DNA of 64,000 nucleotides from the NCBI RefSeq assembly GCF_041248615.1, contig NZ_CP158426.1, one strand, 5' to 3'. This stretch comes from Escherichia coli. GTDB taxonomy: Bacteria; Pseudomonadota; Gammaproteobacteria; Enterobacterales; Enterobacteriaceae. The position numbers were made by a program, and so were the translations under genes. The notes beneath the pieces were generated by a model. It searched no databases, was not told the DNA's origin, and worked only from the letters and a program-made list of their open reading frames with translations. Below are positions 13,349 to 54,895 of the stretch, in pieces. Each line of letters starts with the position of its first letter. Positions within the stretch are counted from its first letter, which is position 1.

Positions 13349-13352
13349 GGAA

Positions 13353-14051
13353 TTACTGCGAAAGTTTGTGAATGGAAAGAAAACCGCCAAAGTTGCCGAC
13401 GTTATTGCGGAACTTACAGCCGCTCAGGCATTTGCTGCATTTATCCTTCGTGATATCGGACGTCGGCTGATCATATTCATCCGCGACCGCCGGACCGCTA
13501 TAACCGCACTCATCGCCGCGATAGGTCCAGGTGCAGGTGTTGGCCAGCATAATACGTCCCGGAAAAACAGCGCCGTCCGTTTCCGTCGGCGTGGCCAGTA
13601 CAAAGGTCGCGCTGACCGCTGTCAAATCACTGCACTGCTCGATGCGCCAGCGGCTGATCACCTCCTGCTCCGGATCGGCGTCACTGTTTCCGTTGACGAA
13701 GTTCACCGCATCCAGAAAACGGGCATAAACTTTACGCCGGACCACCGTTCCGCCGACCAGACTCTGCATATCTTCCACCATACCGGTGACCATACCGTAC
13801 AGGTTAGAAACCGTCAGCGTGGGGCGCGTACTGGTACCTTTGCCATTCAGTTCAAAACCACTCCCCTGAATGGGATACGGCTGATACTGCCGCTCCTGCC
13901 AGGTGACCGGCTCACCTTTTTCGTTCTGCTCATTACAGAAAAAATAACGTTCGCCACCGACCTCTGTCAGATCAATTTCCCAGAGCACCACGCTGGCCGA
14001 CTGCTCCGCACGGGTGCATTCATTCAGTGTTTCCTGCCGGATATCCTGCAT
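13353..14051 (-). CDS. L: minor tail protein L
   Basis: Lambda gpL homolog, 232 aa. Confidence 0.9.
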   Translation of the reverse strand: MQDIRQETLNECTRAEQSASVVLWEIDLTEVGGERYFFCNEQNEKGEPVTWQERQYQPYPIQGSGFELNGKGTSTRPTLTVSNLYGMVTGMVEDMQSLVGGTVVRRKVYARFLDAVNFVNGNSDADPEQEVISRWRIEQCSDLTAVSATFVLATPTETDGAVFPGRIMLANTCTWTYRGDECGYSGPAVADEYDQPTSDITKDKCSKCLSGCKFRNNVGNFGGFLSIHKLSQ

Positions 14052-14380
14052 CAGTTCACCACCTGTTCAAACTCTGCGCTGAACTCAACACGCAGCATAC
14101 TGACCCGCGACGACCATTTTGCGCAGGTCACCTTTATCTGCCGCCACTCATAAGGCGGCGTCCACAGAAAGGCCTTCCAGCCCCCGTGCTCAGCCAGAAA
14201 CGACTCCAGCGCCGTGGCCTCCCAACGGGGAACAGAAAGCGTCACGCTGTACGTTTTCAGGTCGGCATTCAGCCCGGCAGGCGCTCGCTGGGAATAGCCA
14301 TCACCAAAGCGCACCTTTCTTACAGAAGGGGCCGAAGCCACATCCATACCGGGTTTCACTTTCCAGCGGAAGGTTTTCAT
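14051..14380 (-). CDS. M: minor tail protein M
   Basis: Lambda gpM homolog, 109 aa. Confidence 0.9.
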   Translation of the reverse strand: MKTFRWKVKPGMDVASAPSVRKVRFGDGYSQRAPAGLNADLKTYSVTLSVPRWEATALESFLAEHGGWKAFLWTPPYEWRQIKVTCAKWSSRVSMLRVEFSAEFEQVVN

Positions 14381-16956: not shown

Positions 16957-17383
16957 ACCGGACTCCTCCTGCGATCCCTTCTGATACTGTCATCAGCATT
17001 ACGTCATCCTCCGTCATGTCCGCCACATCCGGGGAAGCGGGGATAACTTCATTCCCGTCCGGGCCAAAGCGGACACCTCCGGCAAGCCCTGCCGCTTTCT
17101 GCATCAGCACATCATCTTCAGGCTCTTCGTCAGCCTCACGCCGGTTCAGCAAACTGAAATCCAGCGGATGCATATCCGGATCGCTGAAAAACAGGCTGAG
17201 CACGGTGTACGTCAGCCCGGAAAAGTGCATATCCAGCAGAACATCATGAAAATAATGGGTACTGTAAAAGCGGTGCCAGTCGGCATACTCCGTGGATGAC
17301 ATCCCGGCAAGCATGGCACGCCAGTCGGGTCGCCCCATCTCACGCGCCAGTTTCAGGGCAAAACTCAGCTCACCGTCGAACAC
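16949..17383 (-). CDS. T: tail assembly protein T, expected to be made as a G-T fusion by -1 frameshift
   Basis: Lambda gpT-like ORF beginning at the slippery site near the end of G. Confidence 0.85.
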   Translation of the reverse strand: MFDGELSFALKLAREMGRPDWRAMLAGMSSTEYADWHRFYSTHYFHDVLLDMHFSGLTYTVLSLFFSDPDMHPLDFSLLNRREADEEPEDDVLMQKAAGLAGGVRFGPDGNEVIPASPDVADMTEDDVMLMTVSEGIAGGVRYG

Positions 17384-17787
17384 TTTCCCGCAGAAACAGG
17401 CTCTGCAGGCCCGGCGTCATCTGCCTGTTCAGGGGCATTATTCACCACAAACTCATACATACCGGACAGCCGGTACACCACGTTTTCAGCATGATAAATT
17501 GCCTGTGTGGGCCAGGTGGTAAGCACTTCCTGCTCAATCTGTTTAACGGCTTCATTCATGGAAGGCTGCTTTGTCTTCTGCGGATGGTTATGCCACAGGG
17601 ACATCGCCACCAGAAACGCGCCGGTTCTGATGGCGTCTTCCACAGTAAACTTCCGGTTGCTGTCTGACTCCGCCTGTTCTGCCTGCCGTTTCATCAGGGC
17701 GAGATGCTCAATACGCTGCAGGGCTGACAGTTCAGAAAGCGTGACGGTCACGCCGTTATGTTCAAATTGTTCTGTTTTCAGAAACAT
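17365..17787 (-). CDS. G: tail assembly chaperone G
   Basis: 140 aa, near-identical to lambda gpG. Confidence 0.9.
   Translation of the reverse strand: MFLKTEQFEHNGVTVTLSELSALQRIEHLALMKRQAEQAESDSNRKFTVEDAIRTGAFLVAMSLWHNHPQKTKQPSMNEAVKQIEQEVLTTWPTQAIYHAENVVYRLSGMYEFVVNNAPEQADDAGPAEPVSAGKCSTVS
17383..17389 (-). other. programmed -1 frameshift slippery heptamer GGGAAAG (G to G-T)
   Basis: Minus-strand GGGAAAG at the G/T overlap, same motif and position as lambda. Confidence 0.7.
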
Positions 17788-17800
17788 GTATTACCTCCGT

Positions 17801-18553
17801 TTACCCTGCAGCGCCCGCTTCAGTAACGGTGACTTCAGCCACTGCGGCGAACTGACCATTTCCGCTCACCACAGGGATCTGCACCTTACCTGTCGCCACG
17901 CCGTTTACCGTAATTGTCATATCTTTCACACTAATGGTGGCTTTCGACGGATCGGCGGAAACCGCTCTGAACGTCTTGTCGGTTGCACTTTCCGGCTCAA
18001 AAGAAACCGTCAGGGTGGTTGTTTTCCCTTTTGCCACCGTACCGGATGTCGGCGTCACCTTAATCGCACTGACCGGCGTAATTTTGCTGCGTTCTTCCGC
18101 TACAGAAGGTTTACCCACGTTAGTGACTTTCACCGTGCGGGTGATCACTTCTTTCGCCGTCACCGCCTTACCGATGCTGCTGACCCAGCCGCGGAACACA
18201 TCGACCGTGCCGTTCGGGAAGCGGATTTTATAGGCACGGGTATCACCTTCATTAAACCACGCCAGCAGCGCCTGCTGCCCCTGCTCTCCGGGCATCCACG
18301 CCAGCGTGAAGCTGGTATCTCCGGCGGATTTCTGCCCCTGTCCGGTCGCGGCCCAGTCCGCATCTTCATCATCGAGATAACTGTCGTCATAGGACTCAGC
18401 GGTCAGTTCGCCGGGCGTCAGGTCTTTAACTTTAGCCAGACGCGACCAGTCAACGTCTGAAAGCGGGTTCGCATAAGGGTCACCGTTCCCCTTATAAACC
18501 CACAGTGTGGTCCCGGCCCCTTTCACCGGTGCCAGAGGATTTGGTGTTGGCAT
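17801..18553 (-). CDS. V: major tail protein V
   Basis: Lambda gpV-like from [29 protein letters not shown]. Confidence 0.9.
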
Positions 18554-18560
18554 ATCGTCC

Positions 18561-18956
18561 TCACATTTCATAGGTAATGACATAAGTCAGATCGGCTGAA
18601 CTCCACAGGCCCGCATCATCGTCGCGCCGGTAGTCATAGCCACTGGCCACCATACTGGTGATCAAATCTGACAGTGCCGGGATATCACTCATCACCGGAT
18701 AAATCCGGGACTCCATCCACGCATCCAGCTCTGAATCCGGCACCTGAGCAGGCAGGAAAACTTCAATATGCAGCTCCGCCTGCCAGGTATCGCTGTCCAG
18801 CTCTTCGCCCGTGTATTCAGCGCCGGTGAGATAAACGGCAACTGCCGGAAAATCCGCCTCATCAAAAACAGCGGGGCGACCATCAAAAAGCGTCGCCCCG
18901 GTGTCATGCTTCTCCAGTGCATCCAGTACGGCTGTACGGAGTTCAGTATTTTTCAT
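18561..18956 (-). CDS. U: tail terminator protein U
   Basis: 131 aa, near-identical to lambda gpU. Confidence 0.9.
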
Positions 18957-19528
18957 CGCTTTATCACAATCCTCAGTTGTTGTTTCAGCGCATAGCTCAG
19001 TTCTTTTGGCAGACGTTCGCGTCGGATACGGTTAACGTTCTCATCAAAAGCCTGTTTCAGTGGGGCCGACATCGGAATTTTCACCACCTGAATGGGAAGA
19101 CGATTACGCTTTTTCCTTCCCTTATCGTCATTGCCCTTCGCATACCTGGCTTCTGGCAGACGTTGCATAACATGCCAGCGCCCATTATTCAGTCGCTGGA
19201 TGAATGCCCGCTGATAACGATGCTGACCGGCTTTGAGTATGCTGTTCGGGCGACGTCCCAGCATCCTGATCCCCAGCTTAATCACAGGAAGATCGCCGCG
19301 GTTAACGATAATTTTTGCGTTCGGATTTCTGACCGTAGCCCGTTTCAGTCTGGATCGCTGTTTAACCAGTTTTCTCGGCACCCGGGTTTCACGGGCGACC
19401 TGAGACGAAGACTGATTAATCGCCGTTGTGGCCACGCGGTTAATGGCCATTGCTGACGCACCGGGCACCGCCGTTCTGCTGATACGGCTGAGGTTTTCAA
19501 CGGCCTGCTCAAGACCCTGTATGGCCAT
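18953..19528 (-). CDS. Z: tail completion protein Z
   Basis: 191 aa, lambda gpZ-like. Confidence 0.9.
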   Translation of the reverse strand: MAIQGLEQAVENLSRISRTAVPGASAMAINRVATTAINQSSSQVARETRVPRKLVKQRSRLKRATVRNPNAKIIVNRGDLPVIKLGIRMLGRRPNSILKAGQHRYQRAFIQRLNNGRWHVMQRLPEARYAKGNDDKGRKKRNRLPIQVVKIPMSAPLKQAFDENVNRIRRERLPKELSYALKQQLRIVIKR

Positions 19529-19539
19529 ACATCCCCCTT

Positions 19540-19902
19540 TCAGCGGCGACGATTAACGGCAGGCGGTACGCCCCGCCCAAGCCAGAGATGACAGCTTCCG
19601 CCATCATCCGGCGAAACCCGGTCTATCCAGAAGTTTTCCTCACCGATGGTCAGCGTGTCTCCACGCCGCAGTTGCCGCACATCATCAGTCCGGACAAACA
19701 GGGACGGGCTGGAGCCTTCAACGCGCACGCCCTGTCCGGCATAGCTGATATTTTCAGGGTCATCAAAAACACCACGTATTACTGCGCCGGGCTGCTCACC
19801 GGATGTAATGGTGGCTGACGTTCCCATATGCCCGCGTATCGTTTCATCAGCCCGGGCAATGGCTGTATCAAAACCGTTATCCCTGATATTAATAACTTTC
19901 AT
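19540..19902 (-). CDS. FII: head-tail connector protein FII
   Basis: Near-identical to lambda gpFII from the internal Met. Confidence 0.9.
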   Translation of the reverse strand: MKVINIRDNGFDTAIARADETIRGHMGTSATITSGEQPGAVIRGVFDDPENISYAGQGVRVEGSSPSLFVRTDDVRQLRRGDTLTIGEENFWIDRVSPDDGGSCHLWLGRGVPPAVNRRR

Positions 19903-20251
19903 CTGTAACAAGCCCCTCCAGGACAAGTTCCGCAACATTCACTGGATCAACTCTGACAGTCATACCTGTAACAACAATCTCCATATCACTGTCATCATGC
20001 GGATGTTTTCCCGCCACATGCAGGGTTTTGAGTACACGAACAGTGCTCATTTCATCCCCGCCAGTGGAGTAGCTATACGTCATCAAATGCCTTTCGTTCT
20101 CATCACTCGCCTGGTTTTTGTCCTCTGCTTCCTCTTCCCATTCCGCCACCCGCTGCGCTATCTCTGCGGCACTCCCGGATATATCCGGCTCACGCCCCAG
20201 AATCCGGGCCAGTTCATCAAGCCGTTTCAGATTTTGCTCTTTCGTTGCCAT
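19889..20251 (-). CDS. FI: DNA packaging protein FI
   Basis: MATKEQNLKRLDELARILG... resembles lambda gpFI; correct position. Confidence 0.7.
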   Translation of the reverse strand: MATKEQNLKRLDELARILGREPDISGSAAEIAQRVAEWEEEAEDKNQASDENERHLMTYSYSTGGDEMSTVRVLKTLHVAGKHPHDDSDMEIVVTGMTVRVDPVNVAELVLEGLVTDESY

Positions 20252-20302
20252 ATCAGGCCTCTGTGAAAAAAGACACGGGGGCATTTCGCCCCCGCTCACG
20301 GA

Positions 20303-31261: not shown

Positions 31262-31606
31262 TTACCATTTCGGCGGAGTCTTCAGAGAACCAGTAATTCT
31301 TCCCGGTAGCTTTCCTTTGTAGGTTATCCACACATTCTGCGCCTCTAAAATTATGGGGCGCTTTTCCGGCGACTGCTCATCCCCTTCACATAACCCGGCA
31401 GCACCATCCAGGAAGAACTGTCTAATGCTCCTTCTCGCTGCTGCCTCATAAAACTCCAACGCGGCACCTTCAACACGGTCCAGCGAGATGTCCAGGTCAA
31501 AAATTTCACCGTCAAAGCGTTTTTTGTCCCGTAAGGCTACAGTTACCGCCACTTTATTCTCAAAATTGCGGACTCCTTTCACAACCAGTTCATAGTCTTG
31601 TGTCAT
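31262..31606 (-). CDS. hypothetical protein between holin and endolysin
   Basis: ORF in the S-R interval; no recognised motif; start uncertain. Confidence 0.4.
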   Translation of the reverse strand: MTQDYELVVKGVRNFENKVAVTVALRDKKRFDGEIFDLDISLDRVEGAALEFYEAAARRSIRQFFLDGAAGLCEGDEQSPEKRPIILEAQNVWITYKGKLPGRITGSLKTPPKW

Positions 31607-31610
31607 TGGA

Positions 31611-31826
31611 TTACTCTCTTCTCGCAACCTTACGCCTGTCTTCTTTAATCTTGAAATAAAGGTTTGTCAGATACGTCAGCAGGCCAAAAACCAGACTACC
31701 CAGCACACCGATTGCAGCCCACTGTGACGGAGTTACTTTATCGAGTAACTGCAATGCCCAGAAACCAGCATTACCAGCCGATGTGCCATAGGCGATACCT
31801 GTTGTTAACTTATCCATTGATTTCAT
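31611..31826 (-). CDS. S: pinholin (phage 21 S-like class II holin, dual-start MKSM)
   Basis: 71 aa, [28 protein letters not shown]... close to S21 including the Met1/Met4 dual start. Confidence 0.85.
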
Positions 31827-32044
31827 ATCCTCACCCCGATGTACACAGATGGTGCAATATGTTTGAAAAGATCGGAGTCTATGGGTTAGTTTTTATAGCA
31901 AACGTTGTTCTCAACGGCGCTAAAAAACAGACACATTAAAAATGTGGGTAATTATTTTAAAAGAAAATCATATATTAAATAATAATACGAGATATGTTTT
32001 CATATTTAGTGTACTGTATACGGCCATTTATACAGGAAAAGCCT

Positions 32045-32215
32045 ATGTCAGAACGTAAAGACTCAAAATCACGCCGTAATTATCTCGTTAAATGTTCCTG
32101 CCCAAACTGCACCCAAGAGTCAGAACACAGTTTTTCAAGAGTACAAAAAGGTGCCCTTTTGATCTGCCCTCATTGCAACAAAGTATTCCAGACAAATCTT
32201 AAAGCTGTAGCTTGA
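32045..32215 (+). CDS. small zinc-ribbon protein (CxxC ... CxxC)
   Basis: AGGA SD before ATG; CPNC and CPHC pairs. Confidence 0.35.
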   Translation: MSERKDSKSRRNYLVKCSCPNCTQESEHSFSRVQKGALLICPHCNKVFQTNLKAVA

Positions 32216-32277
32216 TTGATTTTATTCGTAACAAGTATTTTTTATATTTTAATAACATATTTAAAGCAGATAATAAA

Positions 32278-32300
32278 AAACCCGCCTGAGCGGGTTTAAT
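32278..32300. terminator. hairpin flanked by A and T runs (possible bidirectional terminator)
   Basis: AAAAAACCCGCCTGAGCGGGTTTAAT. Confidence 0.4.
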
Positions 32301-32578
32301 ATTGTGGTGCTTTTTGTGGGAGTCATCCACTTACGCACTTTGTTTTGCTATGCTAGCAGTTAGCTTCTGCTGTAAAACTATTCATGCAGCAAACCTGCAC
32401 TTCACCACAATGGTTAGCATACTTTTCCTGATTAAGTTATTGCCAAATATGCTGGCCATTGTTTCATGTATTGGATCTCCTTACTATTTATTAAAGAGAT
32501 CCAATATTCACCACTCTGTCTGTATCTCCACTCAGGCATCAGCCTTCTTCGTTATCGTATACAGACAAACTATTAATT

Positions 32579-32794
32579 TTAATCAGTAATTATGACATTT
32601 GCTGCTGCAGGACCTTTAGCACCACTCTCTACAGAGAAGGTAACCTTTTGACCTTCAAATAAGGTTCGATAATTATCATTCTGAATCGCAGAAAAATGCA
32701 CAAACACATCTTTACTACCATCAACAGGAGAAATAAAGCCAAAACCTTTATCAGCGTTAAACCATTTTACTAAACCAGTCATTTTATTTGACAT
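32579..32794 (-). CDS. cold shock protein (CspB-like)
   Basis: [21 protein letters not shown]... canonical CspA-family sequence. Confidence 0.8.
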
Positions 32795-33093
32795 TCTACA
32801 TTCCTTAACTTGAGCCTTTCGGCATAAATGGCTTGTATAACAGAAACGACTTCGTACTTAATTGGAGAGACTCAAAGAAGGAATAAGTGAATAACACCTG
32901 AAATGAGAACTGCTTTAGTAAACTACTTCGTATATCGTCTGTTCTTCAAACCGACGCAATCATTAACGCATAGTTGAACATATGAAGCAATGTTTATTTT
33001 AGACATCCAGCCATCTTCAACCCCATCAAAAAACTATAGCTTTCTTCAGGAACGTGTGTATAGTGCGCCAAGTTATCAGTATTAAGGAATTTT

Positions 33094-33306
33094 TTGTCCC
33101 GTAAAATGACAGGAATTCTCAAAACCTTTGACGGCAAAAGCGGCAAAGGTCTTATAACCCCATCCGATGGTCGTATCGATGTCCAGCTTCATGTTTCAGC
33201 GCTCAATCTCCGCGATGCAGAAGAAATTACCACCGGATTACGCGTGGAATTTTGCCGGATAAATGGTCTGCGTGGACCATCAGCTGCCAATGTTTACCTT
33301 TCATGA
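33094..33306 (+). CDS. cold shock protein paralog (CspF/CspH-like)
   Basis: [26 protein letters not shown]... CspF/H-like. Confidence 0.75.
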
Positions 33307-33598
33307 GCTATATTAAAGCTTTAACTTCAAGCCCCATCGAATCAAACATGGAGAGTTTTCATGAATAAACCCGTCTGTCTTGATGACTGGTTGATTGGCT
33401 TTAAAAGCTTATGCTGTACTTTGACCTTAATAGCTCTGCTAATAATGTAATAAGCAGACTCATTGTATCTATGGACATTGTACTGGAAGAAAACATTTTA
33501 AACATCAGGCAAAAAACAAAGTCACCCGATAAATAATAAGTAAACTAACATGAATCCCGTAATGAGATTCAACATCTCTATTACCCTATTTAAAGCAC

Positions 33599-33622
33599 AA
33601 AAACCCGCTCATCAGCGGGTTT
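33599..33622 (-). terminator. tR-prime-like terminator downstream of Q
   Basis: CCCGCT-CATC-AGCGGG hairpin with flanking T run (on the minus strand). Confidence 0.5.
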
Positions 33623-33668
33623 TCTACTTTTTCTTAACTTCGGGTATACAAAGCCCATCGTTGAAAAA

Positions 33669-33697
33669 ATTTTATCCATATTTTTTGAAAAATGCAA
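33669..33697 (-). promoter_or_regulatory. putative Q-dependent late promoter (pR-prime-like)
   Basis: Minus-strand TTGCAT, 17-bp spacer, TAAAAT, immediately downstream of Q and upstream of the hairpin. Confidence 0.45.
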
Positions 33698-33728
33698 GCA
33701 TCACGTCGCCATCTTCGGCGAAAATCAC

Positions 33729-34481
33729 TTATCTCGTCACCTTTCTCAATTGTGCTTCAGCGTAAGATTCCTCCTGCCAGCACTTTGTAACCAGTTTATC
33801 AATGACATTTGCATATCCTTTATACCACTGATAATCACTCAGGTCCGGTACCAGCTTCTGGACATGATGCCGCGCCAGTGTGGTTGGTAAACGACTAAAC
33901 CGTTTTCCATTGCAACGCCCACAAATCTTATAAACAGGTGTGCCATGAAGCCGGGTCCTTTTTTCATCCAGGACAATACCTTTACCCTTACACCCTCTGC
34001 ACGCTGTGCTGACTTCTCCCTTACCATGGCAATGCTGACATAGTTCCTTCACCCACTCTTCTTTGATAACAGATTCCCCGCTTCTGGAGTGTTTCACCAC
34101 TTCGCGCAATACATTATGAAATCCAGTACCAGCACAATGCTCGCAACGAGCCTTACTTGCCGCAGACCTGGAATAATCAGCAAAGGCAAAATTCACAAGG
34201 TAAGGAATAATCTGTAGCCGGGTTTCTTCACTCAATTTATTCAATGTCGGGTTATCCAGTGCCATCGCGTAATTGAGCAGACCTTCAATCGCAAACTGAG
34301 GATCCTGAACACCAACTTTTGCCAGGAATAAGGCAAACCCAAGCGGTGCTTTCGACTGCACCATCCCCTGCGCAGCCATCACATCCGTAATCGTTAAACC
34401 ACCAGAGCCTGTCGCCGGTGCGTCATCACTCAATTTTGGAGATTTTGGGGAGTAATATTTTGGTAAGGCTTCAAGGTTCAT
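33729..34481 (-). CDS. late-gene antitermination protein Q
   Basis: 250 aa with Cys-rich zinc-binding region (CEHCAGTG ... CQHCHGKG ... CRGCKGKG), Q-family; position upstream of lysis genes. Confidence 0.7.
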   Translation of the reverse strand: MNLEALPKYYSPKSPKLSDDAPATGSGGLTITDVMAAQGMVQSKAPLGFALFLAKVGVQDPQFAIEGLLNYAMALDNPTLNKLSEETRLQIIPYLVNFAFADYSRSAASKARCEHCAGTGFHNVLREVVKHSRSGESVIKEEWVKELCQHCHGKGEVSTACRGCKGKGIVLDEKRTRLHGTPVYKICGRCNGKRFSRLPTTLARHHVQKLVPDLSDYQWYKGYANVIDKLVTKCWQEESYAEAQLRKVTR

Positions 34482-34494
34482 GCTCGTTCTCCAC

Positions 34495-35490
34495 TTACGC
34501 CAGTACGCCTATTGCCAGCGCACGATCGATAAAACGAAATATCAGCTCCAGCTGGGAGCCATACTTCTCTTCAAATGCCACGGTATCCGCATGCAGCTCG
34601 TCGTGATGCTTTCTGCACAAAGGCAACACAAAAAGGTCATGCGCTTTTGTACCCATTCCCCCCTGACCGTGGCCTATCAGGTGGTGGGGATCATCAGCAG
34701 GTTTTCCACAACATGCGCACGGCTGCGTCTTAACCCAGCGCGTGTACTTTTCATTAACCCAGCGGTGACGTTTTGGGCGTAACATAAAAGACTCCGGCGA
34801 CTCCGGATCCACTTTCAGCGCCAGCACCTTTTTCGCCTTATCCTGGATGATGCTGGTGGCAGGAACCGAAGGCACAAGGTCACTTTCCCGGGTAACAGAC
34901 GGCACAACAGGCTTCGGTAATCTCAGTGCCTTACGGGCTGCACTTTCCGGTAAGGCATCCGCCAGATCATTACGAATCAGCCACCAGCACAGTTCCGGCA
35001 TTGTCACAACATGACTGTCATCAAAACCGAGATCCCGACGCACAACAGACAACACCCAGCGGGCACAGTTATCCGTTGCCATTGATTCCAGCCGTTCCGT
35101 GAACTGATCGCGCAGCTGGTTATCGCAGTGCCAGCACAGACGGATTGCGCCCGGAGCGTGTCGCATTGTTGTCATATTCTCGCTGTGCCAGTCGGAATGA
35201 GGCCACTGGCAGCCTTTTTCACGAAGTAACCAGCTTTCAAGACATTCCACCCCACCAGCACGACGGATCACTGCCTCATTGCGGAACACGGCCCGAACGG
35301 CAGGATCATCCGCCAGCGGTTGTGATGCCGCCGGAACGGCACCACTGGCGAAAGATGAATAACGTTCCGGCTCAGGCTCCAGCAGGACACGCCCCTGCAT
35401 AAACAAGGGCATCAGCTCTGAACCTGGTCTGAACAATACGATCCCCATACGCGGGGCAATTTCAGGGGTCAGTAGTGCTCTCACGGTCAC
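34495..35490 (-). CDS. DUF968-family protein with C-terminal HNH-like zinc motif
   Basis: C-terminal CACCGKPADDPHHLIGHGQGGMGTKAHD...CRKHHDELH; common lambdoid early-region gene. Confidence 0.55.
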   Translation of the reverse strand: MTVRALLTPEIAPRMGIVLFRPGSELMPLFMQGRVLLEPEPERYSSFASGAVPAASQPLADDPAVRAVFRNEAVIRRAGGVECLESWLLREKGCQWPHSDWHSENMTTMRHAPGAIRLCWHCDNQLRDQFTERLESMATDNCARWVLSVVRRDLGFDDSHVVTMPELCWWLIRNDLADALPESAARKALRLPKPVVPSVTRESDLVPSVPATSIIQDKAKKVLALKVDPESPESFMLRPKRHRWVNEKYTRWVKTQPCACCGKPADDPHHLIGHGQGGMGTKAHDLFVLPLCRKHHDELHADTVAFEEKYGSQLELIFRFIDRALAIGVLA

Positions 35491-35491
35491 C

Positions 35492-36319
35492 TCAATGAAC
35501 GGTATCGAGCAGCTTTAACAGCTCAGGGAATCGGGATTCGAAGAAATGCGGCTGCGTCTCGCGCGGATTTGCAGGACTGGTGATGTTCTTGCCGAACATG
35601 CAGCCTTTCGCGGTCAGCGACCAGAATTTTTTGATGTTGTTAATCGCGGTACGACTGTATCGTTCGCGTTGTTCAACGATCCCCAGCTTCGCCATCTGGT
35701 GATATGCCTGATTAGCCGTCAGGCGGATACCATACTGCTTCAGCAGTGCACTCAGCGACAGCGTAGGGCGGCTTGAACCATCTGGCGCATCAGCAGGTGC
35801 ATCAATGGCATAGATCGGCATAAGTTCAGGAAGACCAGCTACCTTTGATAATTTCTGGTATGCACCAAGTTTCGAGGAGTTTGACAGATTTAGAGTCTTT
35901 GCTGCTGATTCAAGCAGAATGACCCCGGATTTAATTTTGTCGGATGTGGTTTCTTCTGGTGATGAATTATGAAGCGCATCAAAAGTACGTATCACTTTTA
36001 AGCTGAATGCCGGGCTGATCCACATTGCATATGCATAGACCAGCTCTTTACAGACATACGTCCCACCATTGCGCCCCTGAATGGTGATGACAGGAATACT
36101 ACGGGAATCTCCCGTAGTTTCTTCTTCCAATAATTCCACAAGAGCCTTCGTTTCAGGACGACGCATAAACTCGTGAACTTCCAGCGAACGGGAGGAGCGA
36201 TTCTCACCAGCGGCAAGAAGAGCAGCTTTCTGAAGGTCGTTAAGACAGTAGTTAGATTCGAAGTACTGGCGCACAGAAACGCCATCAATTACAAGCAACT
36301 GATTCATTGGTTTCTCCAC
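35492..36319 (-). CDS. KilA-N domain protein
   Basis: N-terminal region (NGGTYVCKELVYAYAMWISPAFSLKVI) resembles the KilA-N/APSES-type domain. Confidence 0.5.
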   Translation of the reverse strand: MEKPMNQLLVIDGVSVRQYFESNYCLNDLQKAALLAAGENRSSRSLEVHEFMRRPETKALVELLEEETTGDSRSIPVITIQGRNGGTYVCKELVYAYAMWISPAFSLKVIRTFDALHNSSPEETTSDKIKSGVILLESAAKTLNLSNSSKLGAYQKLSKVAGLPELMPIYAIDAPADAPDGSSRPTLSLSALLKQYGIRLTANQAYHQMAKLGIVEQRERYSRTAINNIKKFWSLTAKGCMFGKNITSPANPRETQPHFFESRFPELLKLLDTVH

Positions 36320-36469
36320 AAATTTTTATCCACGAGCGGGACTGCACTCCCTTTTCGTTGATGCAGGATGAACTTACTGCGATTTTTAATAGTTATCAAG
36401 GATACACTGTTCATAAATACAGTATCTTTAACGAGGTAATACCCAAATTTAGGGTGTTGCTCAATTCCG

Positions 36470-36865
36470 TTACCGAGTTGCTAATTTGCAACTCGCTTTT
36501 TCGTACTTACTGATAGTGATCTCGACCTTCCCCTCCGGGATAACCGGTCCCCACTCCACCAGCATTCTTTTCACCTGACTGTCGTCTTCCCACACACCCG
36601 CGTGGGTCAGGGCGTCAAACAGCGCCTTGTTATAGTTGTCCAGATCGCGGATCCGGTTATCCGGAGGAAACAACACGATCTCCACTGAAGCAGGTGCCGA
36701 CGTTGGTTTCGGCAGACGACGTAACTGCTCAACTATTGCTGCGCACGCCGCGCTCTGGAATTTGCGCCCCGCTGCGCTTATCAGACTCTTACCAGCAAAC
36801 GCCCCTTTGTTGGGGTGTCGCCAGTACGTGTTCACGCTGGGCGGGAAAGGCAGGATCAGCTTCAT
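36470..36865 (-). CDS. rusA: RusA-family Holliday junction resolvase
   Basis: RDLDNYNKALFDALTHAGVWEDDSQV matches the RusA catalytic core. Confidence 0.8.
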   Translation of the reverse strand: MKLILPFPPSVNTYWRHPNKGAFAGKSLISAAGRKFQSAACAAIVEQLRRLPKPTSAPASVEIVLFPPDNRIRDLDNYNKALFDALTHAGVWEDDSQVKRMLVEWGPVIPEGKVEITISKYEKASCKLATR

Positions 36866-37188
36866 ACTTTCAGGCCCCTCTCATGTAACCAGTGGGCTGC
36901 ACGCAGCCTGCCGTTTTCCTCACCGGCAAGCAGTGCGCGGATAATCCCGACCGCCTCGCTGTCGTCGTCCTTCACCGCGGTATGAAGCGTTATCCCCCGG
37001 GCCACGCCACGCTTTATCGTGATGACGCCTTTTTTCTCCAGTGCACGAAGATGCTCTACCGCTGCATTCACTGAACGGTATCCCAGCATGGTTGCCACCT
37101 CCTGATTGGTTGGCGGAAAGCCACGCTCTTTCTGGTAAGAAATCAGCATATCCAGCACCTGCTGCTGGCATTGAGTTAACGTCGTCAT
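36862..37188 (-). CDS. LexA N-terminal DNA-binding-domain homolog lacking the S24 peptidase domain
   Basis: MTTLTQCQQQVLDMLISYQKERGFPPTNQEVATMLGYRSVNAAVEHLRALEKKGVI aligns closely with E. coli LexA residues 1-70; ORF ends after about 108 aa. Confidence 0.6.
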   Translation of the reverse strand: MTTLTQCQQQVLDMLISYQKERGFPPTNQEVATMLGYRSVNAAVEHLRALEKKGVITIKRGVARGITLHTAVKDDDSEAVGIIRALLAGEENGRLRAAHWLHERGLKV

Positions 37189-37676
37189 TACGCCCCCACG
37201 TAATTCCCTGACAGATACCACTCATCACTCGATACAGCGCGCTTGCTGCTTTTCCGTAAACACTGCTCACGACGCGCCAGAAAATTGTTTCGTTCTGGCT
37301 GGGAGTGGCTTTCACGGAATGCCGCCATCCACACCGTTGCAGCACGACGGTATAAGCCCCTTGACTCCAGTTCTTCAGCCTGGCGGGTCAGGCACAAAAT
37401 CACCCGGGGATCGTTAGTGCCGACATAGAAATTGCGCACAGGTCTGGTTTCACGAACTGGTTGTGGTTCCGGCTCCTGCGCTCTCTCAGTCAGGCGCGGG
37501 AAATGTCTGCGTGTATCTCCTTCACAACGGTGAGCCACACGCCCACTCTGACGTAACTTGCTTGCTGACTGCAGAACGCGCTGCCGTGAGTAACCTGCAA
37601 AAGCATCCGCAATGTCTCCGGAAGTACACCCCGGATGGGCTTCAATGAATTTCTGAACTTCATTCAAAAGACTCAT
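37188..37676 (-). CDS. PerC/ANR-family transcriptional regulator-like protein
   Basis: C-terminal half (ELESRGLYRRAATVWMAAF...RREQCLRK) resembles PerC; N-terminal half is winged-helix-like. Confidence 0.45.
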   Translation of the reverse strand: MSLLNEVQKFIEAHPGCTSGDIADAFAGYSRQRVLQSASKLRQSGRVAHRCEGDTRRHFPRLTERAQEPEPQPVRETRPVRNFYVGTNDPRVILCLTRQAEELESRGLYRRAATVWMAAFRESHSQPERNNFLARREQCLRKSSKRAVSSDEWYLSGNYVGA

Positions 37677-37678
37677 AA

Positions 37679-38620
37679 TCACCCCCTGAATCCTGCCGGG
37701 ATCTGGCTGTAGTCCACGTTGTCGTAACTGGCTTTGAAGTACGGGTCTTCACGTTTTTCTGTGTGCGTGCTGACGGACGGCGATAAGCGCAGGGAAAGCT
37801 CATCCCATTTTTCCCGCAACTTCGACGGGCTGAGCACGTTACGGCACCAGAACGGATCGCGGCTGACGCGGCTGTACATCTCGCAGATTTGTTTGTGAGT
37901 ACGACCATCCTGCACACACATCAGGCGAATTTCGTTTGCCCAGGCTGTCCAGTTAGGTTCTTTGGGACGAACCACCTCGCCGTCACATTCGGCGGCCTGC
38001 TCGTACAGGGCGATGATTTTTTTCCAGAGCCACTGTGCGCAGGTCAAATCATCCTGCGTTCCCCACTGGCGCTTTTTAGGGCTGAATACAACCGCATCAG
38101 GATGGCGAGTTAAAAAATCCTGTTCATCCATCTGCGTGTCCGGTTGCGAAGCGTCCGGACGAGAAGGTTTTTTATCTGATGGATCATGTTTTGATTTTAC
38201 TGACGGATCCCCGCCAGATTCTGACGGGTGAAAACCCGCTTTTTTGCCAGATTTCGACGCATCAAATTTTGACGGGTCAGATTTTGATGCGTCAGATTTT
38301 GACGGGTCAGAATCTGACAGTTGAGAAAATGCCGCTGCCTGAAGCTTCGCAACGTTAAGCTGATAAACATTCGACGCATTGCGGTTACCCTGGCGACGCG
38401 CCTTACGCGTTAACCAGCCTTCTGCTTCCAGCCGTGCGATAGCCGTTCTGACGGTACTCATCCCCGCGCCAATCTGACGGGCAATGGTTTCAATTGATGG
38501 CCAGCACACACCTTCGTCATTACTGAAATCAGCCAGGCGGGCCATAATTGCCACGCTGGATAACTTCATGCCTGATGCAGCGCAACCATCCCATACATAG
38601 CCGGTTAATTTAGTGCTCAT
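37679..38620 (-). CDS. phage replication initiation protein (replisome-organiser N-domain, DnaT-like C-terminus)
   Basis: N-terminal wHTH (CWPSIETIARQIGAGMSTVRTAIARLEAEGWL); repeat-encoded linker; C-terminus YDNVDYSQIPAGFRG mirrors the DnaT C-terminus [13 protein letters not shown] at 60180-60204. Confidence 0.6.
   Translation of the reverse strand: MSTKLTGYVWDGCAASGMKLSSVAIMARLADFSNDEGVCWPSIETIARQIGAGMSTVRTAIARLEAEGWLTRKARRQGNRNASNVYQLNVAKLQAAAFSQLSDSDPSKSDASKSDPSKFDASKSGKKAGFHPSESGGDPSVKSKHDPSDKKPSRPDASQPDTQMDEQDFLTRHPDAVVFSPKKRQWGTQDDLTCAQWLWKKIIALYEQAAECDGEVVRPKEPNWTAWANEIRLMCVQDGRTHKQICEMYSRVSRDPFWCRNVLSPSKLREKWDELSLRLSPSVSTHTEKREDPYFKASYDNVDYSQIPAGFRG
38185..38330. repeat. iteron-like direct repeats inside the replication gene (putative ori)
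   Basis: About five copies of (C/T)AGAT(T/C)(T/C)TGACGGGT spaced at roughly 18-20 bp, with an adjacent A+T-rich stretch. Confidence 0.5.
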
Positions 38621-38629
38621 GACCGACCT

Positions 38630-38968
38630 CTATTTCCCTGAATTTACGACGAAACTGTTCGAGCGGACTGAAGCATTCATGCTCATAACCTTCGCGGAGG
38701 TAGATAACCCGTTGTGTTTCCGGCTCCCAACGAATGACTCTGACGAGCACTCCGTAGTGATCTTTGAACCAGCGGTTAACTTGTCGCAAAGGACTGTCTC
38801 CTTCTGCCGGTTGAAATCACCCACAGCCCACTCTGCAAAGCTGTGGGTTACAATTTCCCTGTCACCTGGTACATTCACTGCATAGCAATATTCCACCTTC
38901 GCTTTTCCACCCGGTACAGGAAGCGCAATCAGTTGCGAGCGACGGTAGTGTGTTGTTAAACTGTTCAT
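38630..38968 (-). CDS. hypothetical protein; possible frameshift or overlapping small gene
   Basis: First about 55 aa look protein-like, the rest is low complexity; an alternative frame encodes ...[33 protein letters not shown] with an AAGGAG SD. Confidence 0.3.
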
Positions 38969-39555
38969 GCGTTAGTTTCTCCACAACCAGAAGCAATCGA
39001 CGCCACGACGCCCGGAGCTGCACACTCACGGGCGTCATTACTTTCTGAAATGCAAAAAATTTTGTAGACAAGTGCTGCATGCTCCTGCAGCTTCGAAATT
39101 GAGAGATACAGCTCGTCGTTAATTGCTGTCTTCTCATGCGGTTCCACTACGCCGTCTTCGATTGCTGAACGAATCTGTTTTGAATAACTGCCGATCTGTT
39201 CAATGACTTCCAGCAGACGCTGGTTAATATCGGCGTTGTCCACATCCTCGACGTCAGGAAGAGACACAAAGACGCCATTTGCAGACTGCGCCACAGCATC
39301 AGCAATGAAGTGAGTGCCACCAGCACGCTGTAAAACCATTGCCCATCCCAGCGGGAAAATCTGATCGCCATCTGCACGAAGGCGGTTGAATAAAGCGTTC
39401 TCTGTTACATCCAGCCAGTCAGCGGCTTCAGCGTAACCCCCCGGCAACGCCGCGATAGTTTTTCTGACAGCTTTCACGTACCACTCAGGCTGTTTTTCTA
39501 TTTTCCAGTGATGCTTACCCACGGCTATCTCCTTAAAACTGTGGTTACTTTTCAT
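38965..39555 (-). CDS. CII-like phage regulatory protein (Phage_CP76/YdaT-like)
   Basis: Position after cro; weak resemblance to the CP76/YdaT-type family; start uncertain. Confidence 0.35.
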
Positions 39556-39793
39556 CTGATGAATCTTTAATCTTTTGAAAAATATCTGGACGTAATTTTT
39601 CTTTTGATATGCCAGTGGTCTTTTCAATGAATATCGAGAGCTTTGCAGGGGGACGCTTTTCTCTGTTCAACCAGTTCCAGACATGTTGTTGCTTTACTAA
39701 ATGACCGCTGCTGGCTGTGAGCTTCCGAGCCAATTCTGATTGACCACCAGCCAGAGCGATTGCCTCCGATAAGGCTAATTGCTCAGGTGTCAT
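39545..39793 (-). CDS. Cro-like HTH regulator
   Basis: 82-aa HTH protein divergent from the cI-like gene. Confidence 0.55.
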   Translation of the reverse strand: MTPEQLALSEAIALAGGQSELARKLTASSGHLVKQQHVWNWLNREKRPPAKLSIFIEKTTGISKEKLRPDIFQKIKDSSDEK

Positions 39794-39928
39794 AGCTTTC
39801 TCCTTTTTTGGTAGTTAAGTTGTTACGAGCTGCAAGAATACAACATTAACAACTTTTACCACAACTTTTAGGTGTTGGAAAGCTAAAACATAAAGTTGTA
39901 ACCTCATCAAAAAAGAGAGGGATATGTT
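39794..39928. promoter_or_regulatory. immunity-region intergenic segment with repeated operator-like half-sites
   Basis: AAGTTGT / ACAACTT at 39818-24, 39850-56, 39862-68, 39894-39900 between divergent cI and cro. Confidence 0.5.
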
Positions 39929-47878: not shown

Positions 47879-50011
47879 TCAATCTTTAAGACTAATTGTG
47901 ATTGCATCTGGAAATCCAATTTGGCTATAGCACATAGTTTCGGTTATGAATAATTTTCTATCGATAAAATCAAGTACATCTTTTTTCGTGAGCCCCGTTA
48001 ACATCGTCAATTTGTTAATTACATAATCATACCAATCATGGTGAAGCATGTTTATATACATGTTAATATCAACTGCATCTTTCTTCCATGAATTATTCGG
48101 TATCAAATCTTCAGATAAAAATCCTCTTATTAAATCGCTTGCATAGGACATCCTAAGAAAAACAGAAAGAAAAAGCCTTACATTAACATGTGTAAAATTT
48201 GTAGATAGCGTCGAAGGAAACTCGTAAAACCGGTAGATCAACCGACTTACAAAAACAGCAGAGTCTATCGCATTTACAGGCAGTAATGTTCCGATGACAC
48301 TTAATGCACCACTTATAACGAAGCCATTAGCAACAGAGGCATGAGAACCACTTAGGGCAGATGTTAAACATGCACTCAGAATTACGATAGGAGGAATTCT
48401 TGCTATTTTTCTCAAACTCCAAGTGTCCACTTTATCCTCACCTATTATTAACCATCCATGACTCCCATTGCCATCATGGTTTCCATGACAATCCATAACA
48501 AGAATATGACCTTGATATTGATTTAGAGCATCAATAAACTCAGCTTTCGATCTAACATCAATAATCTCGCAATCAAGATCTGGCATCTGTTTTTTAAATA
48601 TCTCAATTGCGTTCTCTAATATGAACTTTAAGTGATCATCAGGCTCAAAAGAACGTATAACTAAAACCTTTCTCAACTCAGATGCTTTTACTAAAACGCG
48701 CGGAAAAGCAGAGGCGCTCTGTAGAAGAACGTTACCAGGCGTAGCATTTATTCTTGATATCTCATGACTGAACATTATAGGTATGTTATTAAACCTAATC
48801 CAATCCAATGGTACATCACAAACAAAGGACAAATCGCTATAGTTTTTACTTATATATGTTCTCAACTTGCAACCAAGGGCTCTTCGAATAACAGTATTGA
48901 ATGCTTTAGATTTAGTGATGAATGCTTCACTATTTATCCCAGAAGAAGTTGCAAGATCTTCAAGATTTTTCAAATAATTGGAGTAATGATTTATTGCATT
49001 TGGCAATCTTATTGCTGGGATTTTTTTATTTATGCTAAATAAAGTAATCGCAGCTGTTGTTAATCGCATTTCAGCGCGTCTTAGTGAGGTGAGGTAACGG
49101 AAAGCAGGACTTTTAAAAAGTTCTTTTCTATCTGAATTTATATCAAGTCTAATTCCAGAATAGCCTGGATTCCTCAACACTCCATCAATAAGGAATTTTT
49201 TCTCAATTGTGGATAAATTTTCCGTTATTAACTCATAAAAGTCATTATTTTTATCATATAAAAAAGAGTGCATACCCGGAGCAAAAAGTAAGACTTCCGT
49301 TGGAAGTGGTATATCTAATTCCTTTAAACATTCGGTGTATGCATCAACGCTATGAAGTATTATTTCTATAAACTCTCTTTTGCTACTACCATCTTTAATT
49401 CTTTTTGGTGGAGATAGCATATAGCCAAGTGATTCAATTAACAACTCATTGGGTAGTGTTGAATTGTTAAGCGTCGATCTCCAAGGTGATTTATTAAATA
49501 AAGCCCCTCTTCGCTTCAACTTCGTTGATATTTTCTTTTCACTGTGATTTTTTCTTATTTTATCCTCAATGAATTTCAACCGAGAGAAGAGCACCTTATC
49601 AAATGAGTATATACTATTAATCTTATTAAGTGGTAGATCAGCGCGTTTAGAATTGCAACAAATTATAGGTGGTATAGCAAAATGTTTTTTTAAAGCACAA
49701 ACATACGAAAAATCTTCTTTAGCACAAAAAATTAAGCAAAATGGCGTTTGATAAATATTTGGTATTTTTTCAAGATTTTCTTTAGATATTAAAAAAATAG
49801 GATTTAGCCCGCTTAGAGTAGGCTGAAAGTTATCATTTTCACTGACAAAAATCTCACTAATTTCTTTTGGTGTTTTGGCCAATAAAAAAAGAATGTTGGA
49901 TATCTCTGGGTTGAGGAGGCCAGTATCGAAACCTTGGATTATGGTTTGTTCCCCAGTAGTAGGCATGATTACAACTTTAAGTATCGCCCCGTGTTCCTGT
50001 AACAGTTCCAT
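47879..50011 (-). CDS. CHAT-domain (caspase-like cysteine protease) protein with an uncharacterised N-terminal region
   Basis: C-terminal GHILVMDCHGNHDG ... PPIVILSACLTSALSGSHASVANGFVISGALSVIG has the His-Gly / Ser-Ala-Cys catalytic signature of CHAT peptidases; AGGA SD before MELLQ; strongly AT-rich. Confidence 0.6.
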   Translation of the reverse strand: MELLQEHGAILKVVIMPTTGEQTIIQGFDTGLLNPEISNILFLLAKTPKEISEIFVSENDNFQPTLSGLNPIFLISKENLEKIPNIYQTPFCLIFCAKEDFSYVCALKKHFAIPPIICCNSKRADLPLNKINSIYSFDKVLFSRLKFIEDKIRKNHSEKKISTKLKRRGALFNKSPWRSTLNNSTLPNELLIESLGYMLSPPKRIKDGSSKREFIEIILHSVDAYTECLKELDIPLPTEVLLFAPGMHSFLYDKNNDFYELITENLSTIEKKFLIDGVLRNPGYSGIRLDINSDRKELFKSPAFRYLTSLRRAEMRLTTAAITLFSINKKIPAIRLPNAINHYSNYLKNLEDLATSSGINSEAFITKSKAFNTVIRRALGCKLRTYISKNYSDLSFVCDVPLDWIRFNNIPIMFSHEISRINATPGNVLLQSASAFPRVLVKASELRKVLVIRSFEPDDHLKFILENAIEIFKKQMPDLDCEIIDVRSKAEFIDALNQYQGHILVMDCHGNHDGNGSHGWLIIGEDKVDTWSLRKIARIPPIVILSACLTSALSGSHASVANGFVISGALSVIGTLLPVNAIDSAVFVSRLIYRFYEFPSTLSTNFTHVNVRLFLSVFLRMSYASDLIRGFLSEDLIPNNSWKKDAVDINMYINMLHHDWYDYVINKLTMLTGLTKKDVLDFIDRKLFITETMCYSQIGFPDAITISLKD

Positions 50012-50144
50012 CAAAAATCCTAATAAACAAATAAGAATGTTATAATCAAAAACTGCAAGGATTAGCAAGCAATTCTTACAGTTTTAAGAAGGGGATTATA
50101 CCGCAATATGCATAATTGCGTTCTGCCTATGCAAAATGTCAGTT

Positions 50145-51362
50145 CTAGTCTGAACAAGTACAAGTAACTATCGATTCAACTCTCTCCCACCATGCCTGGT
50201 AAGCTTTACGCTGTTCATCTAAATAATCGCTCTTGTCATAAACCTGCCATACCCCTGGCAGTTTATGACCGAGCATTATTTCTGCAATATGAGGTGCAGT
50301 AAGATCAGAAAAGTTTGTTCGTGCTGTTCGTCTCAAATCATGAAGAGACCAATGAGGGAATTGATACCCCAAACGCCGCCATGCGTACTGCATTAAATTG
50401 TAAGGCAGCGACTGCAATGATGTCCGGCCAACGGGTTCCCTGCTTCCTTCCTTAGTAAAAAGCATATCGGAACCATTGTTCATAGAGATAACGTACTTTA
50501 TAAGCTCTTCAACCGGTTCAATAATGGGGCGCTTTAGCGGTTCGCCTGTTATATCCCCTGTCTTATGTCGTTCTGGCGGTACAGTCCATACCTTATTAAT
50601 GAAATCAAAATCATTCACCCTAGCGGTAATTAGCTCTGAACTACGGCAGCCAAAATGCAGCAATAGTTTAATGAAGGCCCGGTATTTAGGAACCATTCGA
50701 GAACCATCGATCGCAGCATAAAGGATTTTAATTTCATCATGTGTCAGAAACCGTTTCTTCTGACCTTTACGGATATCCATATCTTTACCCGTGATATCCG
50801 ACAGCGGGCGAGTTTCAATGAGCTTTCTCTTATACGCCCAGACATGGGCCTGCTTTGCGTTAATTAGCAATCGGTCTGCTATTGCTGGAGTCTTAGTGCT
50901 AAGAGGCTCCAGGACTTCTAACCAATCATGCAATGTAGCTGCATCGTGAGGGATATTCCCGATTTTAGAGAACAGGTGCAGCTCAAACGAGCGGAGTATC
51001 TGTTCAGAACCTTTTTTATTTTTTACACAATATGCTTCATACCAGGCACGGATCACAGACTCTACCGTCATGGCTTCAGTAGCTTTTCGTTTTTCAGCCT
51101 GCTTGACTAATCGTGGATTGCGGTTTGACTCGAGTTCACCACGGAGACGGATAACTTCTTCTCTGGCCTCTTTTAATCCAGTTGCCGGGTAAGTTCCGAT
51201 ATCAAGGCGCTCACCTTTCCCTGCCCATTGATAACGATATTGGAACACTACGCGACCTTTCGGTGATACTCTGACAGACAGACCATCACGATCGGATTTA
51301 ACCAAAACCTTATCACGTTCCTTTCCAACGACTGAACGCAACCACGCATCAGACAGCGCCAT
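50145..51362 (-). CDS. tyrosine recombinase / phage integrase (P4-type)
   Basis: 405 aa; N-terminal DGLSVRVSPKGRVVFQYRY; C-terminal HDLRRTART ... LGH ... Y catalytic pattern. Confidence 0.85.
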   Translation of the reverse strand: MALSDAWLRSVVGKERDKVLVKSDRDGLSVRVSPKGRVVFQYRYQWAGKGERLDIGTYPATGLKEAREEVIRLRGELESNRNPRLVKQAEKRKATEAMTVESVIRAWYEAYCVKNKKGSEQILRSFELHLFSKIGNIPHDAATLHDWLEVLEPLSTKTPAIADRLLINAKQAHVWAYKRKLIETRPLSDITGKDMDIRKGQKKRFLTHDEIKILYAAIDGSRMVPKYRAFIKLLLHFGCRSSELITARVNDFDFINKVWTVPPERHKTGDITGEPLKRPIIEPVEELIKYVISMNNGSDMLFTKEGSREPVGRTSLQSLPYNLMQYAWRRLGYQFPHWSLHDLRRTARTNFSDLTAPHIAEIMLGHKLPGVWQVYDKSDYLDEQRKAYQAWWERVESIVTCTCSD

Positions 51363-51591
51363 TACTCACCTTGTACAAATAAAAAAACACCTCTGCTGTT
51401 TTGTACATTATGTACAAGCACATGTACAGATTTTTGATGAAAGCAACCTGATCGATTTAAAGTTACATGAAAGAATTTTCAATTAAAGAAACCACATAAC
51501 ATCATGTTATTAAATGAGTTATATGATTAGCACTCAATTAACTGAAAGGACTTTGAAAGAGTAAAAGAGCTTTAATTTGGGCTTAATTATT

Positions 51592-51657
51592 GGGGTGAGA
51601 AATAATGGCAAAAGTGCGGCGCTTCGCCACCTCTTGCAAATAAGGAGACAACGTCAT
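51592..51657 (-). pseudogene. prfC: prfC (peptide chain release factor 3) first 22 codons, cut off by the prophage
   Basis: Minus strand encodes [22 protein letters not shown], then diverges into AT-rich prophage DNA just before the expected P-loop DAGKT. Confidence 0.7.
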
Positions 51658-51747
51658 AATTCTTTCTTCTTGAGTAAGCGGCATCGCGCCGCGCTTGTTG
51701 AAAACGAAAAATTGCGGCTATTTTACCCATCAACGGGGGGGAGGCAA

Positions 51748-52425
51748 TCAGTGTTTACACAGGAGCTGCTCCAGTTCGTGCAACGAAGAAACGGTCCAGG
51801 TAGGCGCGATGCCTTCTGGTTGCTCGCGATTGTGCGCATTCAGCCAGCAGGTCGCAAGCCCGGCGTTGATGCCACCGAGAATATCGGACTCGGCAGTGTC
51901 GCCAACCATCAGCACGCGTGAACGGTCAGGATTGCCCGCCTGTTCCAGCGCATAATCGAAAATTTTCTTATTCGGTTTGGCTACGCCAACTTCTTCGGAA
52001 ATCACCAACAAATCGAAATAATCACGCAGGCCCGTGCGTTCCAGACGCACTTGCTGCAAGGCGCTAAAGCCGTTGGTGATGATGCCGATTTTGGCGTTGC
52101 CACGAATGGCGTTAAGCAGAGAAACCGCGCCCGGCAGCGGCGTACAGATTTCCGCCATCGCATTAATAAAGGCTTCGTTGAGTTTACCCGGCTCGACGTT
52201 CAGTCGTTCGGCCCAGCTCTCAAACCGCCCGTGCTGAAGCTGTAATGAAGTGATCGCGCCGTTTTGATAATCCACCCACAGTGGCTTGTTAACGGCCTGA
52301 TAGTCCTGAAAATCTTCAGCGGTAAAGGTGACGCTGTAATCAAGAAACATCCGCTGCAGGCCGGTGAATGAGTCAAAGGTAAACAGCGTTTCATCGGCAT
52401 CAAAGAAAATCCAGTCCCACTTCAT
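51748..52425 (-). CDS. yjjG: pyrimidine 5-prime-nucleotidase YjjG (HAD family)
   Basis: 225 aa, matches E. coli YjjG. Confidence 0.9.
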
Positions 52426-52439
52426 TATTCCACCTTGTC

Positions 52440-54404: not shown

Positions 54405-54662
<258 letters not shown>

Positions 54663-54867: not shown

Positions 54868-54895
54868 AAAACCACGTTGATATTGCTCGCACTGG

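Follow-up and report, generated by a model that had tools for sequence, protein, structure and literature searches.

Organization of the attR locus

The window analysed here, a 64,000-nt stretch of Escherichia coli DNA, contains a prophage integrase gene (int) and the chromosomal gene yjjG, and positions 51363-51747 make up the entire gap between the two (Table 1). A preliminary description of the sequence had located a prophage-chromosome junction in this gap, inside the 5' end of prfC, and homology searches bore this out. When K-12 RF3 was used as a tblastn query against the whole window, residues 1-23 matched 51657-51589 (E = 5e-9), in agreement with the translation of the remnant, and no other part of the 529-aa protein was present. 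A Megablast search of 5,426 complete E. coli genomes with window 51300-51800 revealed universal chromosomal homology, comprising yjjG and the prfC 5' end, from window position 51593, whereas the int-proximal part was found in only 699 of these genomes. The anticipated switch to AT-rich phage DNA was also evident, with a GC content of 33-45% in the adjacent 4 kb versus 53-56% in the yjjG-rimI-holD-rsmC flank. The int ORF starts exactly 230 bp inside the junction, as had been estimated.

On the chromosomal side, yjjG is annotated in both NZ_LT599825.1 and NZ_CP090611.1, and the yjjG-prfC intergenic region shows 100% identity to the uninterrupted K-12 and Sakai loci. This region holds the RBS of native prfC together with a promoter-like site, TTGCCT-16-TAAAAT (reading from 51747 to 51720), which is a candidate by consensus match only (9 of 12 positions). 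The remnant ORF has 24 codons and lies upstream of int, which has the same orientation; window 51589-51657, equivalent to 4631134-4631202 of the identical record, is annotated by PGAP as an incomplete pseudogene. As described earlier, the prfC promoter and first 22 codons have been parted from the remainder of the gene, the window holding only RF3 residues 1-23. A terminator scan detected no terminator-like site between the remnant ORF and int, and an Rfam search of 50000-53500 returned no matches at E ≤ 0.1. The interval is attR, the right-hand end of a lambda-like, cdtI-type prophage in the start of prfC, and 51583-51657 is best labelled in annotation as the displaced native prfC 5' end at attR.

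Table 1. Features of the window with coordinates, strand and basis of assignment
Feature	Coordinates	Strand	Basis
Nested Mu-like prophage, right end	1..2049		
Lambdoid prophage, part within window	2050..51592		Annotation of identical record; similarity to phage cdtI
Excisionase gene (xis), 3' end replaced by IS	46254..46436	+	cdtI comparison
IS1414 (IS256 family, Transposase_mut) in xis 3' end	46413..47727	+	blastn breakpoints versus cdtI; annotation
CHAT-domain cargo gene adjoining int	47879..50011	-	Pfam CHAT; annotation
Tyrosine integrase gene (int), 405 aa; Arm-DNA-bind_3, Phage_int_M and Phage_integrase domains	50145..51362	-	Pfam
P arm of att site, phage DNA between core and int	51363..51592		Identical to cdtI attP
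Remnant ORF: native prfC codons 1-22, two phage codons (Asn-Asn), TAA	51583..51657	-	Translation
attR copy of 14-bp core GGGTGAGAAATAAT; prfC codons I18, I19, S20, H21 and the first two bases of P22 on the minus strand	51593..51606		att comparison
Native yjjG-prfC intergenic region with native prfC RBS and promoter-like site	51658..51747	-	Sequence identity
yjjG (pyrimidine 5'-nucleotidase), chromosomal, upstream of prfC	51748..52425	-	ORF; annotation

Core and arms of the attachment site

Both junctions were aligned with the uninterrupted locus in a four-way comparison of attB (K-12 AB1157), attP (free phage cdtI, NC_009514), attL (strain NRZ14408) and attR (the window). This alignment defined an identical 14-bp core; on either side of it, attL and attR have the arms of attP and attB in reciprocal combination. 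In the coding sense the core reads ATTATTTCTCACCC (ATT ATT TCT CAC CC) and covers codons I18-I19-S20-H21-P22. Independently of this work, GenBank record LC727876, from a prfC-integrated Stx2c phage, marks a 14-bp 'duplication due to insertion'. The preliminary description had the sequence change over one codon before the GTPase P-loop. A break at the P-loop was confirmed, but it falls inside the G1 motif (SHP/DAGKT), past the second base of codon 22 and thus between S20-H21-P22 and D23-A24-G25-K26-T27.

The P arm carries four palindromic TGTACA motifs, at 51372, 51402, 51411 and 51423. The 64-kb window has 11 such hexamers, four of them within the 230-nt P arm (Poisson P ~1e-7), and the P' arm has four more at positions 6222, 6234, 6262 and 6331 of the NZ_LT599825.1 locus (L003). 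We infer that the TGTACA motifs are candidate arm-type Int-binding sites. A similar TGTACA pair was observed upstream of a surrogate prfC start in Limnobaculum (L048).

A hybrid prfC reading frame at attL

Because a Mu-like prophage is nested within the lambdoid prophage, attL lies outside the window. It was located in E. coli NRZ14408, where 4579546-4583745 of NZ_LT599825.1 shows 100% identity to window 1-4200. The gene order in that record is osmY, prfC (4540614-4542200, 528 aa, WP_000202563.1), a DinI-like gene and prophage DNA. The core-to-core span is 88,999 bp, placing the far junction 37.4 kb left of the window. The rest of prfC had been expected beyond the far prophage end, and it was found there, 89 kb from the attR junction.

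The P' arm reads ...AAAGAGACAACAATT ATG ACA AGC CTT TTG GCC GCA GAG GTA GCG AAA AGA AGA ACC TTT GCA and then enters the core, at which the phage contribution, the ATG and 21 codons, is fused in frame. The preliminary description had made reconstitution of prfC dependent on the phage's content at the far junction. In sequence terms, the surrogate start of the phage restores the ORF in frame, and a full-length prfC reading frame is rebuilt at attL by the phage-borne surrogate 5' end. The hybrid RF3 has 528 aa versus 529 aa for the native protein and is identical to it apart from residues 1-8, where native MTLSPYLQ is replaced by the seven residues MTSLLAA. It scored 1089.6 bits against the prfC model TIGR00503.

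Eight nucleotides distinguish the phage sequence from the native one over the nine codons that directly precede the core, and all eight differences are synonymous; when eight changes were placed at random, none of 200,000 placements was wholly synonymous. The surrogate coding piece of cdtI, 2H10, Ayreon, one Stx2c phage and three lysogens occurs in two variants, both synonymous. Exclusively synonymous divergence therefore points to protein-level selection on the phage prfC copy, although some constraint unrelated to RF3 function might in principle lie behind purifying selection on these codons. Ahead of a conserved stretch, native RF3 proteins have N-termini of varying length and sequence (Vibrio MSNTPFLSEVSKRRTF, Alteromonas MTQLLEEIKRRRTF, also Pseudomonas), so that the surrogate N-terminus falls within natural variation. 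All E. coli RF3 structures in the PDB have the native K-12 sequence, and none has the hybrid N-terminus.

Two LexA-box-like sequences (CTG-N10-CAG) were noted on the attL side at L003 6362-6408. They precede the hybrid prfC start codon by 170-215 bp and overlap the promoter of the divergently oriented dinI-like gene.

Integrase relatives and SXT/R391 elements

The window integrase is identical to that of phage cdtI at 403 of 405 residues. A database search placed it in a large family of homologues; no model specific to this integrase was found in NCBIfam. Four homologues were retrieved, from Salmonella (85% identity), Vibrio diabolicus (52%), Pseudomonas (52%) and Acidovorax (51%). Each lies 200-230 bp downstream of a co-oriented prfC 5' fragment, and all four fragments end directly after ATTATTTCNCACCC, at the same codon.

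SXT/R391 loci were retrieved from species-representative genomes with a published primer (PMC8386438). In 35 of the 38 SXT/R391-type loci so obtained, representing 35 species, a prfC 5' fragment directly adjoins the ICE end, the junction being ATYATYTCNCACCC/TGATGCC, also given as ATYATYTCNCACCC/TGATGCCGCCCAGCC. The SXT-type integrase shows 39% identity to the window integrase over its full length (E = 1e-91). SXT/R391 elements use the same prfC codons 18-22 as the window element and likewise leave the native 5' fragment at the int-proximal end. In SXT-type loci 0.7-1.9 kb separate the core from int, which is directed at the junction; in the window element the separation is 230 bp and int runs in the same orientation as prfC. 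The core of SXT also extends further (to ...CCTGATGCC) than the 14-bp core defined here, and SXT is a conjugative element whereas the window element is a phage.

SXT/R391 elements are defined by an integrase nearly identical (about 99%) to IntSXT (PMC2791158). The window element shares the prfC 5' site with this group, but its integrase is well short of ~99% identity and its annotation is that of a lambdoid prophage, without the conserved conjugative backbone (tra, setCD/setR). With 39% Int identity and no conjugation genes annotated, membership of SXT/R391 was rejected. A broader grouping by Smyshlyaev 2021 (PMC8138268), citing Asakura 2007, places the integrases of the cdt1 phage and SXT in one prfC-targeting 'SXT cluster'. 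The window integrase belongs in that cluster, which comprises homologous integrases of elements inserting at prfC. Integrases of one family, carried by phages, islands and ICEs, share these P-loop codons as their target. The coding sequence for the P-loop of this translational GTPase is almost invariant, which accounts for the broad host range of the integrase family, and the prfC site is open to phages, genomic islands and SXT/R391 resistance ICEs alike.

In Limnobaculum eriocheiris (L048, ~7250-7400) the prfC 5' piece next to an SXT-type ICE is non-native and has TGTACA motifs ahead of it, which suggests tandem occupancy of prfC by phage-type and SXT-type elements. A non-native prfC-like start is joined directly to an SXT-type left end in Alteromonas alba (L034, ~5500-5600 of a 6-kb contig); this is probably an ICE attP or a tandem joint, and hence an SXT-borne surrogate N-terminus. 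In Agaribacterium haliotis (L045, ~2160-2420) the SXT-type left end lies at a secondary, non-prfC site.

Prevalence and related elements

Of 5,426 complete E. coli genomes, 699 carry the attR (int-yjjG) junction and 683 the attL (hybrid-prfC/DinI) junction, or about 13%. prfC was annotated as intact in every lysogen of the sample inspected, and the exact hybrid protein, named RF3_ECOK1, occurs on at least 1000 contigs.

Phage cdtI (CDT-1; AB285204/NC_009514) and its relatives 2H10 and Ayreon are identical to the window prophage in the P arm, the core and the P' arm with its surrogate prfC 5' end, and have the CHAT gene, xis and DUF551 neighbourhood in common with it. The window prophage lacks the cdtABC, cif and nleH cargo of cdtI and has a YadA-like gene instead. 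Also unlike cdtI, it is broken by the Mu-like prophage, two IS1414 copies and one IS1.

Intragenic integration also occurs with phage 21 and e14 at icd, where the phage carries a diverged, largely synonymous replacement for the gene end. In that case it is the 3' end that is replaced, so no promoter or RBS need be supplied. Integration of SXT in prfC was reportedly described by Hochhut and Waldor in 1999, and Asakura is said to have described phage cdtI in 2007. That elements integrate in prfC with a surrogate 5' end is already known (Hochhut and Waldor 1999; Asakura 2007; Ogura 2007; Smyshlyaev 2021).

Stx1a and Stx2c prophages in prfC (O103 strain 5; CC119; LC7278xx) occupy the same site with the same 14-bp duplication and, like the window prophage, replace the RF3 N-terminus with loss of the native RBS and promoter. 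This replacement and loss were documented for an Stx1 phage in prfC by Ogura 2007 (PMC2323221), and in CC119 STEC, which carry Stx1a and Stx2c phages at prfC, the gene is a long-standing site (PMC10132054). Cargo differs, there being no stx genes in the window. Integrative elements that target dusA (e.g. IMEVchUSA3; PMC8409611) have a different target gene and are of an unrelated element type.

Proposed integration mechanism and possible expression of hybrid prfC

In the mechanism we propose, a P4/SXT-type tyrosine integrase would recombine phage attP with attB inside prfC, with strand exchange predicted to occur within the shared 14-bp core in the RF3 GTPase P-loop codons. The native promoter region, RBS and codons 1-22 would be left at attR as a dead-end ORF. 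At attL, the surrogate RBS, ATG and 21 codons of the P' arm would join the chromosomal remainder of prfC in frame. Formation of attR and attL by Int-mediated recombination, together with regeneration of hybrid RF3, is in our judgement very probably the explanation of the locus.

An origin of the junction in homologous or illegitimate recombination, or in an assembly artefact, would dispense with the integrase. The ~60 bp of imperfect homology between phage-borne and native prfC could support RecA-dependent exchange. However, hundreds of independent complete genomes share the same breakpoints in the 14-bp core, as do Stx phage records, and the reciprocal attP is present in the free phage genomes cdtI, 2H10 and Ayreon. 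Moreover, an intact cognate integrase adjoins the junction and distant Int homologues cut the same codon in other genera, making a non-integrase origin highly improbable. Smaller still, to the point of being negligible, is the chance that the 22-codon fragment is a duplicated remnant on a mobile element, with an untouched native prfC elsewhere. This was a formal possibility only, raised in the preliminary description. The fragment is contiguous with, and together with it 100% identical to, the native yjjG-prfC intergenic region; genomes have a single yjjG-prfC 5' junction each (5,428 places in 5,425 records); and free phage genomes carry the surrogate rather than the native sequence. On the syntenic osmY side of NRZ14408, no prfC apart from the hybrid is annotated. 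An intact prfC does exist elsewhere, then, but as the hybrid at attL and not as an independent second copy, the fragment being the displaced native 5' end.

The alternative that bears on biology is insertional inactivation, whereby the attL hybrid would go unexpressed after loss of the native promoter and RBS. In that case the lysogens, some 13% of E. coli, would be RF3-null by nature, with the intact ORF a by-product of the att sequence. A consensus scan and a relaxed scan of the 220 bp preceding the surrogate ATG yielded no convincing sigma-70 promoter on the coding strand, and the lack of a clear promoter there would suit silencing. The best matches were 8/12, versus 9/12 for the native region, and the SD-like sequence of the surrogate start is weak. 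In the literature, expression of hybrid prfC is stated as not known by Ogura 2007 (PMC2323221), and Bobay 2013 classed prfC among genes disrupted by prophage integration. RF3 is also dispensable in the laboratory, delta-prfC recipients having been used in PMC2791158, and lysogen viability is therefore no proof of hybrid expression. Against inactivation, lesions would be expected to build up in an unexpressed gene, whereas the hybrid ORF is intact and its protein identical over many lineages, including those in which the prfC prophage is reported as ancestral (PMC10132054). The phage-borne codons have diverged by synonymous changes only, and SXT provides a precedent for acquisition of a new promoter plus N-terminus. 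We regard both inactivation and the RF3-null status it implies as improbable.

The preferred reading is that Int-mediated integration regenerates RF3. Purifying selection, ORF maintenance and the SXT precedent point to a hybrid prfC that would be transcribed and translated to give functional RF3. Transcription could come from a phage-borne promoter or from read-through of minus-strand cargo genes. Given the hybrid ORF, the 'disrupted' label of Bobay 2013 is an over-simplification, and prfC in these lysogens should not be scored as disrupted, as was done in that survey. The level of hybrid RF3 or its altered N-terminus might affect translation termination in the roughly one in eight E. coli strains with the hybrid gene.

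Integration might also swap promoters and so change the regulation of both prfC and int, an idea we hold to be unlikely, if less so than inactivation. In the circular phage, the P' arm containing the surrogate prfC start would read across attP into int, and after integration it would drive hybrid prfC; we give this limited credence. Equally tentative is the converse part, in which the housekeeping prfC promoter would read through the 24-codon remnant into int. With no terminator-like site between remnant and int, the native prfC promoter may, speculatively, read into int. If promoters were swapped, phage DNA next to two LexA boxes and the Int arm sites would determine the RF3 level in ~13% of E. 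coli, and that level could differ from the one under native regulation; in the extreme, the gene could be silent.

Composition and state of the prophage

The lambdoid prophage has genes for tail fibre, tail, head, terminase, lysis, Q, replication, immunity, xis and int; annotation of the identical record shows terminase, portal, capsid, tail, holin/lysozyme, antiterminator and repressor-like genes to be present. Inserted in its YadA-like cargo gene is the Mu-like prophage, which is ~37.6 kb long (NZ_LT599825.1 ~4543950-4581595; L003) and encodes a DDE transposase, Gam, Mor, gp16 and contractile tail proteins. Together the two prophages amount to a composite element of 89 kb at the prfC site.

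Int and both cores are intact, and xis is truncated by IS1414. The xis product matches the cdtI excisionase at 54 of 60 residues and diverges after residue 53; the IS boundary lies at 46412/46413, and the insertion is accompanied by an 8-bp target duplication. Judging from these features, IS1414 in xis and the other insertions may have locked the prophage in place, and excision is doubtful. A second IS1414 (window 7459-8667) interrupts the tail J/DUF3672 region and an IS1B lies at ~42271-42951, between yfdP and yfdQ; both are further signs of prophage decay.

The CHAT-domain protein encoded next to int has ~711-729 aa, and its gene, which is also present in phages cdtI and Ayreon, has a GC content of 33-35%. 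It could represent defence or abortive-infection cargo. At the opposite end of the lambdoid segment, the tail-fibre gene (4233-6038, 601 aa) contains sixteen overlapping repeat copies with a 45-nt periodicity at 4453-5711. This stretch has high GC and probably encodes collagen-like repeats in the fibre protein.

Beyond the prophage, the window includes three tandem tRNA-Leu(CAG) genes of the leuQPV type (54781-55103). Direct repeats of ~110 bp occur at 54409-54663, upstream of these tRNA genes and downstream of rsmC, in what is ordinary chromosomal context.
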